A DNA stretch of 64,000 nt from an uncultured virus (IMG/VR IMGVR_UViG_3300006033_000021) (taxonomy: Duplodnaviria; Heunggongvirae; Uroviricota; Caudoviricetes). Positions 38,197 through 62,029 of this stretch are shown here, one piece after another. Position numbers and translations under genes: made by a program. The first letter of the stretch is position 1. Every line of letters starts with the position of its first letter. Where the stretch lies: the IMG/VR virus record IMGVR_UViG_3300006033_000021; one strand, given 5' to 3'. The notes beneath the pieces were generated by a model that made no database searches, was not told the DNA's origin, and saw nothing but the letters and a program-made list of their open reading frames with translations.

Positions 38197-38352
38197 TAGG
38201 AGCACCGGCTGCCGGTCGCTCCCCCCAGTTTCAGAGGGGTGGTGCCCTCTGAAAACCGAAACAGATCCGAGATGATCTGGGTTGGTTCCTCCATGGTGGT
38301 TAGATGCCACCGGAATGATACGGGCGATAACTCTAGGGTTATCGCCCGTATC
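38197..38352 (+). ncRNA. candidate small structured RNA (about 155 nt)
   Basis: own promoter, four consecutive hairpins and a 15-bp closing terminator stem (38317-38352); no credible ORF. Confidence 0.6.
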
Positions 38353-41612: not shown

Positions 41613-42051
41613 GGGGATGAAATGGTCTCGACAGGGAGTGTCGGAGTATTTCAATGCACGCCGGGGATGATGAGTTGGCCCCGTTAACAATCTTATCAAA
41701 CAATGAAATGACGAAGCTAACGTAGTTAGTATTAGTGACTTCCGCGCAGCTAAGGCCGCTAAGGTGGCTAAGGTTTCCGCTCCGGTCGCTTTCGCTCTCG
41801 CTGCCTAAATCGGCGAGACCGTTGGTCTAGGACTGTACCGAACAATAGCCTAGCAATGTTATTCCAAAAGTCGGTGTAGAGATCCACTGAATGACCTTTA
41901 GGTGGCTCGAAATAACTGGTTCTGAATTAGGCAAATGGCCTTGCTCATTGTGCTTCCGAGCCTAATTCAGCATTCAGGGGAACAATGAGACAAGCGTGTA
42001 GAGTTGGGTATAACGTCTCTTTGGACGCGAGTTCGATTCTCGCCATCTCCA
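41613..42051 (+). ncRNA. ssrA: tmRNA
   Basis: acceptor stem GGGGATG/CATCTCC-A with G3.U70; 5' GGTCTCGAC; T-arm GCGAG-TTCGATT-CTCGC; tag ORF 41710-41808 ending FALAA-stop; CCA not encoded. Confidence 0.95.
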
Positions 42052-42209
42052 TTGGTATTCAGGAGTATTAGGACACTGGATACTATCCCCTATTTTCCTA
42101 TCTCGCCTACATATGTAGAAGGAGACACAGGCCCGCTTCCACCATGGAGGCGGGCACTGGTTTTTATGGTGACTCCTGAATTGGAGTCATTCTTGCATTT
42201 AAGGAACCC

Positions 42210-60719: not shown

Positions 60720-60743
60720 TATAATAGAGCTAGGAGAATAAGA

Positions 60744-61073
60744 ATGCGCAGATATTAGGACCAACACTTCTACGTACTGGTAAGGGATGACCTTCCCATT
60801 CCTCAACAAGCTGTTCAGGCAATTCACGCCGCTCACGAAGCAGCTTTACACTTAGTCGAACCTCCCCCTAAGATTGCATCATTGGTACTATGTTCTGTGC
60901 CAGATGAAGATGCTTTACTTCGGGCTGAGCATGTCCTTAATATGAAGGGCGTGCGTAGCATTGTCTTTTATGAACCCGATATGGGTAATATCCCTACTGC
61001 TCTGGCTACAGAGTATGTGACGGGTTCCACTCGTAAGTTGTTTAGTAAATATCCACTATGGGGAAAGGAGTAA
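60744..61073 (+). CDS. PTH2-like peptidyl-tRNA hydrolase with in-frame UAG at codon 5
   Basis: AGGAG-ATG CGC AGA TAT TAG GAC...; reading on gives FYVLVRDDL..QQAVQAIHAA...FYEPDMGNIPTALA, a PTH2-family pattern. Confidence 0.75.
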
Positions 61074-61076
61074 ACC

Positions 61077-61118
61077 ATGTTGTAGGGCACGGTAGAACGC
61101 GCGCCTCCCATTGGCTAA
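61077..61118 (+). other. leader minigene ML(UAG)GTVERAPPIG*
   Basis: AAGGAG RBS overlapping the PTH2 stop; RAPP follows an in-frame UAG. Confidence 0.55.
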
Positions 61119-61158
61119 CTAAATCGGTATGTTGCCCTTTTGCCAATGGAGAGATACA

Positions 61159-61527
61159 ATGTTAACTGAATATATCATCGACCGTTTAACCAAGATTCGT
61201 CAGCGTATCAAGGCTTGTGCTTACTATGTGACTAACCAGGAGCATTGCAAGCCTGAAGATTATGATGAGATCATTAAGACAATCAGCCCATATAGCCGTA
61301 GTTGTGAATACTATATGACTGCCTTGTTGAATCTACACCATAAGATTCGTGGTCATACTGAAAGTTATCACGACTATAAGCCAGCTAAGGATGGTTCTCA
61401 TGATGGGCGACAAAACTATGTGAGTAGCCTTCAGTATGCGCTCATGAAAGAACTCGACATTACCAAGGAGATGCTCGATATGATCGCTGCAAATGTCGAG
61501 GAATATCAAGCGCAGAAAGTTGCGTAA
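61159..61527 (+). CDS. hypothetical protein downstream of PTH2 with occludable RBS
   Basis: GGAGAG RBS (61148-61153) pairs with 61105-61115. Confidence 0.65.
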   Translation: MLTEYIIDRLTKIRQRIKACAYYVTNQEHCKPEDYDEIIKTISPYSRSCEYYMTALLNLHHKIRGHTESYHDYKPAKDGSHDGRQNYVSSLQYALMKELDITKEMLDMIAANVEEYQAQKVA

Positions 61528-61538
61528 TATTGCGCAAT

Positions 61539-61571
61539 GGGGCGGTGGGGGGGATGATTCTCCACCGCCCC
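61539..61571 (+). terminator. GC-rich hairpin closing the PTH2 unit
   Basis: GGGGCGGTGGGG...CTCCACCGCCCC; no strong U-tract. Confidence 0.5.
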
Positions 61572-61618: not shown

Positions 61619-62029
61619 ATGATGCGATACTTACTAAAGTGCTTGACAGTTATAGTGCTATTGGCTACTCCTCTTTTTGGGCAATCGCTCAATGATCCTA
61701 ATGTAACAGCTACAGCTAAAGGGCAATGTGTTGTTATTCCTCTTAGATATGCAGATGCACCAGCGTTGGCAATGCTATTCGCCAATTCTCAGTGTCAGGG
61801 GATGCCATTGAGATATCAGATGTTAATGATGATGTCTGGTGGTTTTGGTAATCAGGGCGGCATGGGCGGCGGCAATCAAAATCGCTACGGTGGCGGTATG
61901 GGTGGCTGGGGCAACCAGGGTGGCGGTATGGGCTACGGTGGCGGTATGGGCGGTTTTGGTAACCAGGGTGGCTACGGTGGTGGTCCGCGCGGCTATCAAG
62001 GCGGCTTTGGTCGTAACCGGAGAAATTAG
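61619..62029 (+). CDS. secreted protein with secretin N-domain-like motif and Gly-rich low-complexity tail
   Basis: signal peptide; VIPLRYADAPALA; repeated GGMGG(F/W)GNQGG. Confidence 0.6.
   Translation: MMRYLLKCLTVIVLLATPLFGQSLNDPNVTATAKGQCVVIPLRYADAPALAMLFANSQCQGMPLRYQMLMMMSGGFGNQGGMGGGNQNRYGGGMGGWGNQGGGMGYGGGMGGFGNQGGYGGGPRGYQGGFGRNRRN

Follow-up and report, generated by a model that had tools for sequence, protein, structure and literature searches.

Introduction

In the ermCL and cat attenuators, a ribosome stalled within a short leader ORF opens a hairpin in which the next gene's SD is sequestered. Stop codons also act as sensors: in prfB (RF2), an early in-frame stop is escaped by +1 frameshifting and measures RF2, while the tnaC leader, whose own stop is where RF2 is blocked, works through Rho termination. 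The bar minigenes of phage lambda release peptidyl-tRNA that peptidyl-tRNA hydrolase must recycle. Certain phages reportedly recode TAG as sense ('code 15') with phage suppressor tRNAs, and expression timing is reported to have been proposed as the purpose (Borges et al., 10.1101/2021.08.26.457843; PMC9523058). Many large standard-code phages carry 'orphan' stop-reading tRNAs for which we know of no purpose.

The arrest peptides most akin to the element described here are ApdA and ApdP, SecM (RAGP), ApcA (RAPG), CruR, and the RAPP/RGPP uORFs of Streptomyces (PMC7897499, PMC10951233 and PMC12992588). Of the arrest cores, RAPP and RGPP are the most robust pair; they are refractory to EF-P and demand little N-terminal context (PMC12992588). 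In the stalled ribosome, RAP-tRNA occupies the P site and the A site contains Pro-tRNA (PMC10951233). For ApdA/ApdP, RAPP alone is insufficient for stable arrest (Sakiyama 2021, PMC7897499), 5-10 upstream residues contribute to arrest (PMC7897499, PMC10951233), and about 15-20 contribute when arrest is stable (PMC7897499). Amber-codon leader switches have been engineered in which genes are controlled by unnatural amino acids (review: PMC6412442).

Here we describe a phage leader in which RAPP follows an in-frame amber codon, located in a 64-kb stretch of DNA (the window) between a PTH2-like gene and a gene for a helical protein. We consider it fairly probable that positions 61065-61161 form the leader of a readthrough-gated arrest (translational) attenuator; we found no published description of a stop-gated RxPP leader in the literature. 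With the RAPP/RGPP arrest peptides the leader shares R-[A/G]-P-P close to the end of a short ORF upstream, the predicted stall geometry (RAP-tRNA and Pro-tRNA in the P and A sites, respectively), and a stalled ribosome that is thought to open a helix hiding the SD of the next gene; it and its relatives use only RAPP and RGPP, the two most robust cores. Unlike in the known RAPP/RGPP peptides, an in-frame stop 1-4 codons before the R gates the motif, and the predicted chain has 9-13 residues (11 here), compared with arrest proteins of about 100 or more of which 15-20 contribute. A leader of only 13 codons leaves no room for a signal or membrane segment, and thus for the stall-releasing pulling force of arrest peptides that are released by the localisation machinery. 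The setting differs as well, the leader being phage-borne beside a Pth2-like gene and suppressor tRNAs, whereas the known RAPP/RGPP peptides lie by sec/yidC or metal genes.

The remaining systems each share part of this design. With ermCL/cat the leader has in common the short ORF and, as proposed here, a stall that opens an SD hairpin; the trigger there is a tunnel-bound antibiotic, whereas here it would be the decoding of a stop, the stall motif being self-acting. As in prfB and tnaC, a stop codon would sense its own decoding and set expression of the downstream frame, but the proposed escape is readthrough and the output an SD-freeing arrest. Engineered amber switches likewise use UAG to let a suppressor tRNA decide downstream expression; those are synthetic, and the leader would be their equivalent in nature, actuated by an arrest motif. 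Lambda bar offers the parallel of a phage two-codon mini-ORF with a good SD (here ATG TTG TAG), and a Pth2-like gene adjoins the leader; however, coding is conserved in the frame beyond the leader stop (RxPP), a feature for which a pure drop-off minigene would have no use.

Results

Anatomy of the leader and the anti-SD helix

The cassette consists of the following features:

60732..60736, + strand: SD (AGGAG) of the first mini-ORF and PTH2-like gene, 7 nt ahead of ATG 60744
60744..60758, + strand: first mini-ORF, ATG CGC AGA TAT TAG (MRRY, stop), in frame with the PTH2-like body
60759..61073, + strand: body of the PTH2-like ORF, 104 codons plus TAA, with no ATG, GTG or TTG before codon 42
61065..61070, + strand: leader SD (AAGGAG), read from the sequence, within the last codons of the PTH2-like ORF
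61077..61085, + strand: leader mini-ORF (ML, stop); ATG 61077-79, TTG 61080-82, TAG 61083-85
61086..61118, + strand: post-stop leader (GTVERAPPIG, stop); GGC ACG GTA GAA 61086-97, RAPP codons, ATT GGC 61110-15, TAA 61116-18
61098..61109, + strand: RAPP codons CGC GCG CCT CCC (R-A-P-P), read from the sequence
61105..61115, + strand: 5' arm of the helix (anti-SD), CTCCCATTGGC, spanning the Pro-Pro-Ile-Gly codons, in MFE and centroid folds
61142..61153, + strand: 3' arm of the helix, GCCAATGGAGAG, including GGAG 61148-51, the SD of the downstream gene
61159..61527, + strand: downstream gene (the proposed regulated gene), encoding a 122-aa helical protein, aligned with the genes behind other leaders

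On re-reading the sequence, every letter and coordinate originally given for the leader (SD, ATG TTG TAG, RAPP and TAA) was correct. The whole leader comprises 13 codons; its ATG at 61077 lies 6 nt past the first base of the PTH2-like stop (TAA, 61071-73). The original prediction had placed it in the same frame as the PTH2-like gene, which is true of the window but not of its relatives, in which leader frames vary with starts from -4 to +6 nt.

The pairing claimed earlier is also present: CTCCCATTGGC at 61105-15 is complementary to GCCAATGG-A-GAG at 61142-53, with the downstream SD inside the 3' arm and its GGAG 7 nt ahead of ATG 61159. Folding of 61060-61170 (111 nt) recovered this 11-bp helix in both the MFE and the centroid structure, but the overall stability was no better than that of shuffles (z -0.75; 42/200 shuffles equally stable). 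The 5' arm forms the best duplex of the SD region within the leader (-18.8 kcal/mol), and 9.7 base pairs are expected between RAPP plus 24 nt and the segment from SD to AUG, a value reached by 2/100 shuffles of the 5' region (2.0 expected pairs). An intrinsic (Rho-independent) terminator or transcription attenuator was considered and rejected, as no U-run follows the 3' arm (ATACAATG follows); a terminator scan called none at 61105-61160. A promoter scan of the window was uninformative (6 found, 4.6 expected).

The six frames of the window contain four R[AG]PP occurrences (61098+, 38248-, 62337-, 61989-). Judged from the window alone, leader and hairpin are thus no more than chance; the leader rises above chance because it is conserved in relatives. 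A mini-ORF and a hairpin that arose side by side by chance in an unremarkable intergenic spacer would suit both the fold z-score and the number of R[AG]PP occurrences, but is already contradicted by the recurrence of the arrangement in 15 further loci spanning 34-62% G+C, and we attach almost no probability to it.

Conservation of the leader in related loci

Relatives were gathered by tblastn; 80 loci were kept, and 72 metagenome loci held a relative of the PTH2-like gene. A leader was defined by a start at -4 to +6 nt from the PTH2-like stop, followed by 1-6 codons, an in-frame stop, 1-4 codons, and R-[A/G]-P-P. The combination of stop and R(A/G)PP singled out by the original prediction recurs behind the PTH2-like gene in 14 of these 72 loci and in one more from IMG/VR (L091). 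Start position, codon counts, in-frame stop and RAPP/RGPP are shared by 15/15 leaders, with a GGAG-type SD at the same position in all of them, and L089 and L091 have the motif too. The condition set for refuting the original prediction, a lack of motif or hairpin at related loci, was thus contradicted, which supports that prediction. The motif is conserved as a peptide: its Arg is written with five synonymous codons (CGC, CGT, CGG, AGG, AGA), the second residue with GGC, GGT, GGA, GCT or GCG, and the prolines with CCT or CCC. Differences in RxPP between the close pairs L015/L021, L019/L023 and L001/L002 are all synonymous, whereas flanking codons alter the residue; the residues preceding R are not conserved among leaders.

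Anti-SD pairing recurs as well. In 13/16 leaders the best anti-SD duplex includes the Pro-Pro codons, and each locus extends the helix with a different sequence. In L005, L019 and L023, the SD pairs best with a segment 11-19 nt downstream of the R codon. Among the 15 leaders, nine have an MFE fold in which the downstream SD is paired to RxPP codons, and pairing exceeds at least 94/100 shuffles in 11, the others (L015, L016, L017, L021) not being above shuffles. Such pairing might act alone, as an RNA hairpin that represses or couples translation of 61159 and is opened, for example, by ribosomes finishing the PTH2-like ORF, with mini-ORF, stop and RAPP incidental to CCUCC. In keeping with this, CCUCC is what would naturally pair with GGAGG, conservation extends to both the helix and the placing of leader starts beside the upstream stop, and L007/8, L009/10 and L087 lack any leader, the downstream family there following or overlapping the PTH2-like gene. 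However, an RNA-only hairpin would not explain an invariant Arg in five codons that switch between CGN and AGR, mostly outside the helix, nor Gly/Ala at the following codon, nor the in-frame stop 1-4 codons upstream in 15/15 leaders, nor the change of that stop to TGA along with the tRNA (see below), and we regard it as quite improbable.

Some leaders depart from the common pattern. L089 has an RGPP leader (MTPYLARGPP) without in-frame stop, and the codon directly after the leader stop is GTG in L004, L005, L019 and L023 and ATG in L091, so that stop-independent starts are possible in these loci. Both observations (the latter in 5/16 leaders) would fit an RxPP pause that controls the downstream gene with the stop not serving as sensor, ribosomes either initiating after it or being merely throttled in flux by it, and with Pro-tRNA, EF-P state or rescue capacity, for instance, as input. 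We give this ungated version very little chance: 11/16 leaders, the window's included, have no start codon between stop and R, the SD is positioned for the start of the mini-ORF, and RAPP/RGPP stalls are EF-P-refractory (PMC12992588).

Blastn against 50,697 phage records found no close DNA relatives of the window, and no full cassette in a cultivable phage was found among these records; the RxPP leader was seen in 0/3 cultured phages examined (ME3, RsoM2USA, LR756511). In IMG/VR, an exact 25-base pattern search and single-protein scans with the PTH2-like and downstream proteins gave no match.

The upstream Pth2-like gene

The gene preceding the leader is itself interrupted by a stop. The succession of SD, mini-ORF, TAG and long startless frame has a single instance in the window, the 60744 gene. 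Among 76 non-redundant relatives, 55 have an early stop in the PTH2-like gene (by a looser criterion), and in 43 of these 55 no canonical start lies between the early stop and the conserved N-terminus. The module also accounts for the way gene callers cut this gene short or overlook it, examples being ME3_195 of Acinetobacter phage vB_AbaM_ME3 and, in Ralstonia phage RsoM2USA, a gap left without annotation. Annotated proteins of ~260-280 residues in XacN1, Xoo-sp13 and RAS14 end in the Pth2-like domain.

The label 'PTH2' given originally holds by fold and falls short by Pfam threshold. The AlphaFold2 model of the protein (pLDDT 92.9) matched Pth2 structures at all of Foldseek ranks 1-12 against the PDB (E 8e-6 to 1.4e-4, TMq 0.71-0.81), among them 2zv3, 1q7s, 3erj, 1wn2, 1rlk and 1xty, whereas the score against Pfam PTH2 (PF01981) was 14.7 bits (E 0.036), below the gathering cut-off of 23. 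A profile of the family reached a peptidyl-tRNA hydrolase among PDB sequences at E 0.072, and the protein matches phrog_1866 (E 3.2e-5). Across 32 family sequences D11, Q16, Q17, Q20, H23, E72, D74 and T80 are invariant. On the evidence of the predicted structure, the upstream gene product has the Pth2 fold.

In-frame stops and suppressor tRNAs

The type of the early stop follows the anticodon of the neighbouring suppressor tRNA. Over the 76 non-redundant loci, an early TAG was accompanied by tRNA-cta (CUA) in 28/28 loci where a suppressor was found and an early TGA by tRNA-tca (UCA) in 5/6, a match in 33/34 loci with a suppressor (Fisher p = 2e-5); all six genome_contigs loci combine TAG with tRNA-cta. 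The distance from this tRNA to the PTH2-like gene downstream of it is 50-260 nt in most relatives. The leader stop is TAG in 13 of 14 metagenome loci; the remaining one, L025, has TGA as both early stop and leader stop, with a tRNA(UCA) 52 nt upstream, and L091 also has TGA in both positions. The acceptor ends of the suppressor tRNAs, listed to learn which amino acid they carry, are inconsistent as called by ARAGORN.

Gated stops are TAG or TGA, never TAA, and the terminal stop of the PTH2-like gene is unlike the gated stop in 15/15 cassettes. The base following a gated stop is a purine in 52/56 early stops and 13/13 leader stops and is never T, compared with a purine after 78/120 ordinary terminal TAGs.

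TAG terminates 25/58 window ORFs of at least 150 aa and 6/15 ORFs that either have family hits or belong to the cassette. That it works as a frequent terminator in this phage speaks against the gated reading. Genome-wide recoding of TAG was therefore rejected, the window being densely coded under table 11 with TAG as the commonest terminator, and so was a 'code 15' genome, one long frame alone being interrupted by an early TAG. Through its relatives the cassette does share with code 15 phages a phage tRNA (CUA or UCA) and genes with in-frame stops that can be completed only when this tRNA acts. Unlike in those phages, there are just two in-frame TAGs in 64 kb, both among the first 5 codons of their translation units and at fixed places in one module. 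The pair of PTH2-like gene and leader would amount to regulation of a module, not to part of a recoded genome.

No tRNA was detected in the 64-kb window by ARAGORN or by Rfam, whether at the gathering threshold or at E<=0.1; the sole Rfam match there is a tmRNA, so the decoder of UAG does not show in this stretch. The contig extends beyond the window: the longest contig for this protein measures 78,409 bases, which places ~14 kb outside. Among the 55 non-redundant early-stop loci, a suppressor tRNA was present in the fetched stretch of 34 and unseen in 21 (17 TAG, 4 TGA), many of these stretches being short. These loci and the lack of a tRNA in the window could indicate that in this phage the leader is a sensor of release-factor activity or readthrough, in which weak UAG termination (low or inhibited RF1, near-cognate decoding) is the input and no phage suppressor tRNA takes part. 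The restriction of gated stops to TAG and TGA, which are served by one release factor each, points the same way. Set against it are the agreement of stop type and anticodon wherever a tRNA is found, with its one exception, and the incompleteness of the window, and we judge such a sensor unlikely.

The missing tRNA could also mean that this phage has lost its suppressor and inherited a cassette that it no longer uses, as the tRNA is close by in most relatives. Decay is not apparent, however: both SDs, both mini-ORFs, RAPP, the 11-bp helix and a 122-codon downstream gene are intact, the 104-codon PTH2-like frame is open and keeps the invariant residues of its family, and the ~14 kb of contig beyond the window would have to be considered as well. 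There is accordingly only a slim chance that the cassette is a relic.

Proposed mechanism

The only sensible reading of the leader requires its stop to be decoded. That this design is kept beside stop-reading tRNAs in related phages suggests that the downstream gene is probably made only upon stop readthrough. From the arrangement we infer readthrough, a ribosome stall, opening of the helix and, as the direction of regulation, a switch from off to on. In the attenuator that we favour, ribosomes would initiate at AUG 61077 through its own SD, and probably also by coupling to PTH2-like termination 4 nt upstream, and would meet UAG 61083-85 after Met-Leu. If the release factor wins, the dipeptide would be freed and the ribosome would stop short of 61105, leaving the helix closed and the SD of 61159 hidden (off). 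If UAG is decoded, in relatives presumably by the phage suppressor tRNA(CUA) encoded beside the cassette, the ribosome would reach R-A-P, with CCU 61104-06 in the P site and CCC 61107-09, carrying Pro-tRNA, in the A site. A stall there, as on RAPP/RGPP arrest peptides, would place the entire 5' arm in the mRNA channel, free the SD and permit downstream translation (on). A stop of the same kind, at the fifth codon, would gate the PTH2-like gene as well, so that the output of the two-gene module would be proportional to suppressor activity.

The original prediction had cautioned that the nascent chain would be much shorter than known RAPP arrest peptides, and this caution stands: the predicted chain at the stall has 11 residues in the window and 9-13 in relatives, and RAPP alone is insufficient for stable ApdA/ApdP arrest (PMC7897499). 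A bolder proposal, which we think rather unlikely, turns this shortness into a function. In it, the suppressor tRNA would be a diffusible regulatory signal in standard-code phages and the module its two-stage detector. The Pth2-like enzyme would be made only after one readthrough, and the leader, probably coupled, would need a second to reach RAPP; with two readthroughs required, the response of 61159 would be steep, roughly the square of suppressor activity. The stalled 11-residue RAP-tRNA would be too short for anchoring in the exit tunnel and might be cleared by drop-off and the Pth2-like hydrolase, which would reset the switch and make downstream expression self-limiting.

The module supplies concrete, conserved targets for orphan suppressor tRNAs, namely an enzyme gene and a leader. 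Should the attenuator be real, it would be the first natural switch with nonsense suppression as input and nascent-chain arrest as actuator, the shortest RAPP-type arrest unit known, and a ready-made natural part for genetic-code-expansion circuits.

The downstream gene

Sequence and structure searches gave no function for the 122-aa protein encoded at 61159. Pfam, PHROGs and PDB sequences gave nothing informative, Foldseek against the PDB found no fold match (best E 1.4), a wide VIA-align search reached a best Z of 5.4, in a range common for helical models, the ESM Atlas was uninformative (scores 0.76), and all 24 close homologues are unnamed. A tblastn search with three neighbouring proteins against the 80 loci gave no match at E<=1e-3. 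A HEPN-like reading of 'RGxxxRH' was rejected, the first R being replaced by Q in L005 and by C in L023 and the HEPN rows of Foldseek having a probability of 0.11-0.13. The family, which numbers 245 representatives at E<=1e-3 and carries the motif ITAxLNLxHExRGxxxRHG, was recognised solely once the ORFs behind each leader were aligned.

Anatomy of the leader in the window

The leader and the start of the Pth2-like gene preceding it comprise the following elements (SD, Shine-Dalgarno sequence).

60732-36 (+): SD of the Pth2-like gene, preceding ATG 60744
61065-70 (+): leader SD AAGGAG, within the final codons of the Pth2-like ORF (TAA 61071-73)
61077-61085 (+): leader mini-ORF ATG TTG TAG (TAG at 61083-85)
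from 61086 (+): post-stop codons GGC ACG GTA GAA, ahead of RAPP
61098-61109 (+): RAPP codons CGC GCG CCT CCC
61105-15 (+): helix 5' arm CTCCCATTGGC, pairing with 61142-53
up to TAA 61116-18 (+): leader end ATT GGC TAA
61142-53 (+): helix 3' arm GCCAATGG-A-GAG, including GGAG 61148-51

The leader sequence and coordinates of the original prediction match the window as written, and the helix it proposed between 61105-15 and 61142-53 is present in both the minimum free energy (MFE) and the centroid fold, with GGAG 61148-51 lying 7 nt upstream of ATG 61159. In a slightly different view of the fold, base pairing additionally joins the leader mini-ORF to the start region of the 61159 gene. The 111-nt leader fold has no unusual stability (z = -0.75), and translating the window in six frames gives the arrest core R-[A/G]-P-P (RxPP) four times. 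The window by itself is no proof of leader function. A second RAPP, at 38248 (-), closes a short frame located between two convergent ORFs, whose ends are 38142 (+) and 38353 (-).

Coding in the window is dense under the standard code, and TAG is a genuine and frequent terminator. ATG 60744 is followed by CGC AGA TAT TAG (MRRY-TAG) in frame with the Pth2-like ORF (60759-61073), which lacks a canonical start ahead of codon 42; this succession of SD, mini-ORF, TAG and long startless frame is the sole instance in the window. The gene callers' product here is a 58-aa fragment (P0001). The protein, which falls below the Pfam cut-off, is predicted to have a Pth2 fold (model pLDDT 92.9; Foldseek ranks 1-12 all Pth2 structures).

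Conservation of the leader

If the leader were functional, as originally predicted, it should recur beside other phage Pth2-like genes. A stop followed by RxPP was indeed kept after the Pth2-like stop in 14 of 72 metagenome loci carrying relatives of the gene, all 14 among the closer relatives (L001-5, L011, L015-17, L019, L021-23 and L025; the leaders of L015 and L017 are identical, and that of L016 is a few bases apart). With the window counted, all 15 leaders have a GGAG-type SD within the final Pth2-like codons, a start codon at -4 to +6 nt relative to the Pth2-like stop's first base, 1-6 codons between start and in-frame stop, and RxPP 1-4 codons past that stop. The leader stop is TAG in 14 of the 15 and TGA in L025, and in all 15 cassettes the terminal Pth2-like stop differs in type from the gated stop. 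RxPP is written with varied codons (Arg: CGC, CGT, CGG, AGG, AGA; second residue: GGC, GGT, GGA, GCT, GCG; Pro: CCT, CCC); between close locus pairs all changes within it are synonymous, while adjoining codons change residue. A stop directly follows RxPP in four loci and the frame continues in the rest. L025 combines a tRNA(UCA) with TGA in both the Pth2-like gene and the leader, and TGA likewise occupies both positions in L091 (IMG/VR). The counter-example is L089:2790-2860, where an RGPP leader (MTPYLARGPP) has no in-frame stop and continues into the next ORF; the Pth2-like gene before it carries an early TAG and is accompanied by a tRNA(CUA).

The helix was compared across loci. The downstream SD has the RxPP codons as its pairing partner in the MFE folds of L001-4, L011, L021, L022, L025 and the window, and in L019 the segment directly 3' of RxPP pairs with the start region; RxPP-SD pairing is absent from the MFE folds of L005, L015-17 and L023. 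Ensemble pairing of RxPP plus 24 nt with the SD-to-AUG region exceeded that of 94 or more of the 100 shuffles for 11/15 leaders, falling short in L015-17 and L021. For 13/16 leaders, the Pro-Pro codons provide the best duplex of the SD region with any upstream sequence. Outside the CCUCC/GGAGG core, arm sequences share no relationship between loci, yet stay complementary within each locus. Judged by these comparisons of sequence, the leader is a real, selected element.

Early stops match suppressor tRNAs

Scanning metagenome contigs with a profile yielded 129 relatives of the Pth2-like gene; 80 were retained (72 with tblastn matches), and 17 IMG/VR loci, 6 genome_contigs loci and 8 phage records were added. 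Among 100 loci examined, 95 had the N-terminal motif and 76 were non-redundant. A stop was counted as early if it lay in frame no more than 14 codons ahead of the conserved N-terminus and was itself preceded by a start codon within 12 codons. Such a stop was found in 55/76 loci (TAG 45, TGA 10, TAA 0), 43 of the 55 having no canonical start after it. Where a suppressor tRNA was found in the stretch examined, early TAG went with anticodon CUA in 28/28 loci and early TGA with UCA in 5/6 (Fisher p = 2e-5). In the mismatch, L078, an ATG four codons past the TGA may be an ordinary start. The suppressor tRNA lies 50-260 nt upstream in many loci, and TAG with tRNA-cta occurs in 6/6 genome_contigs loci. 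Early TAGs are also present in Acinetobacter phage vB_AbaM_ME3 (ATGACTTAG; L086), which has an annotated tRNA with anticodon CTA, in Ralstonia phage RsoM2USA (ATGTTGTAG; L085) and in uncultured phage LR756511. The recurrence of the early stop, matched to the suppressor anticodon, thus indicates that the first amber minigene of the window is characteristic of the family and linked to suppressor tRNAs.

The annotation of the ME3 gene (ME3_195) begins at an internal start codon, and the gene of RsoM2USA falls within an unannotated gap. The codon preceding the early stop is ACG in 18/55 loci and ACN in 27/55, and many mini-ORFs, at Pth2-like starts and leaders, end in Gly-Phe-Thr or similar (MGFT, MTGFT, MSGFL, MSGFV); both may form a readthrough-favouring context. 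ARAGORN also called tRNAs with two- or four-base anticodons ((ca), (tt), (cttc), (gaaa)) near suppressor tRNAs in L007/L008 (about 330 nt past the cassette), L034, L036 and L044, which may be miscalls or reflect unusual anticodon loops.

A proposed stop-gated arrest leader

A purine 3' of a stop favours amber suppression. One follows 52/56 early stops and 13/13 leader stops, compared with 78/120 ordinary TAGs, which fits a suppression-friendly context of the gated stops. According to PMC12992588, arrest is most robust with two cores, RAPP and RGPP, and is refractory to EF-P and undemanding of upstream sequence; in PMC10951233 the stalled ribosome has RAP-tRNA at the P site, with Pro-tRNA occupying the A site. 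A ribosome whose P site holds CCU 61104-06 would cover the 5' arm 61105-15, whereas one whose A site holds UAG 61083-85 would stop short of that arm, so that termination would keep the SD hidden and readthrough plus stalling would free it. We regard as moderately probable a RAPP-type arrest leader with stop-codon-gated access, within a suppressor-tRNA-linked phage module, in which only ribosomes passing the UAG would stall, melt the helix and switch on the 61159 gene. A release factor-sensing version, an RNA-only helix, an ungated pause leader, a relic or chance are together somewhat less probable. The weak points of the gated arrest leader are a nascent chain of 11 residues, the report by Sakiyama 2021 (PMC7897499) that RAPP by itself is insufficient for stable ApdA/ApdP arrest, and the absence of a suppressor tRNA from the window, where ARAGORN and Rfam detected no tRNA genes in 64 kb. 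In the literature searched, neither a stop-gated arrest leader nor a suppressor-gated Pth2 gene was described; PTH2 is noted in jumbo phages by Iyer 2021 (PMC7824862), whose text contains neither 'suppressor' nor 'stop codon'.

The downstream gene and its surroundings

The ORFs downstream of the leaders belong to a single divergent family (alignment A2; 78-122 aa; motif ITAxLNLxHExRGxxxRHG) with 245 representatives at E<=1e-3. The protein model is helical, and Pfam, PHROGs, PDB sequences, Foldseek, VIA-align, ESM Atlas and close homologues gave no functional clue. In L007/8, L009/10 and L087 a family member follows or overlaps the Pth2-like gene without a leader, which argues that the gene pair predates the leader. 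With or without a leader, the second gene would appear to depend on ribosomes past a gated stop. In more distant relatives (L024, L030, L031, L036, L038, L040, L054, L059-L062 and L077), a different conserved gene, whose product starts like SRWGFHPCDYE..KLKRLHK, abuts or overlaps the Pth2-like gene at its stop.

A G+C-rich inverted repeat (61539-61571, +; 10-bp arms) lies 12 nt past the stop of the 61159 gene; it has no U-run and was not called by the terminator scan. The next ORF, 61622-62029 (+), with no Pfam or PHROG match, encodes a hydrophobic N-terminus and then Gly/Asn/Gln-rich repeats (GGMGGGNQ..GGYGGG). The window is phage-like in content, with genes for an NAD-dependent ligase, clamp loader, sigma factor, methyltransferases and thymidylate synthase; the major-head match is weak. 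Rfam identified a full-length tmRNA at 41613-42054 (+) (RF00023, 116 bits) that is absent from the ARAGORN output. In the relative L002, a tmRNA stands at the head of a tRNA array containing the suppressor tRNA and the cassette.
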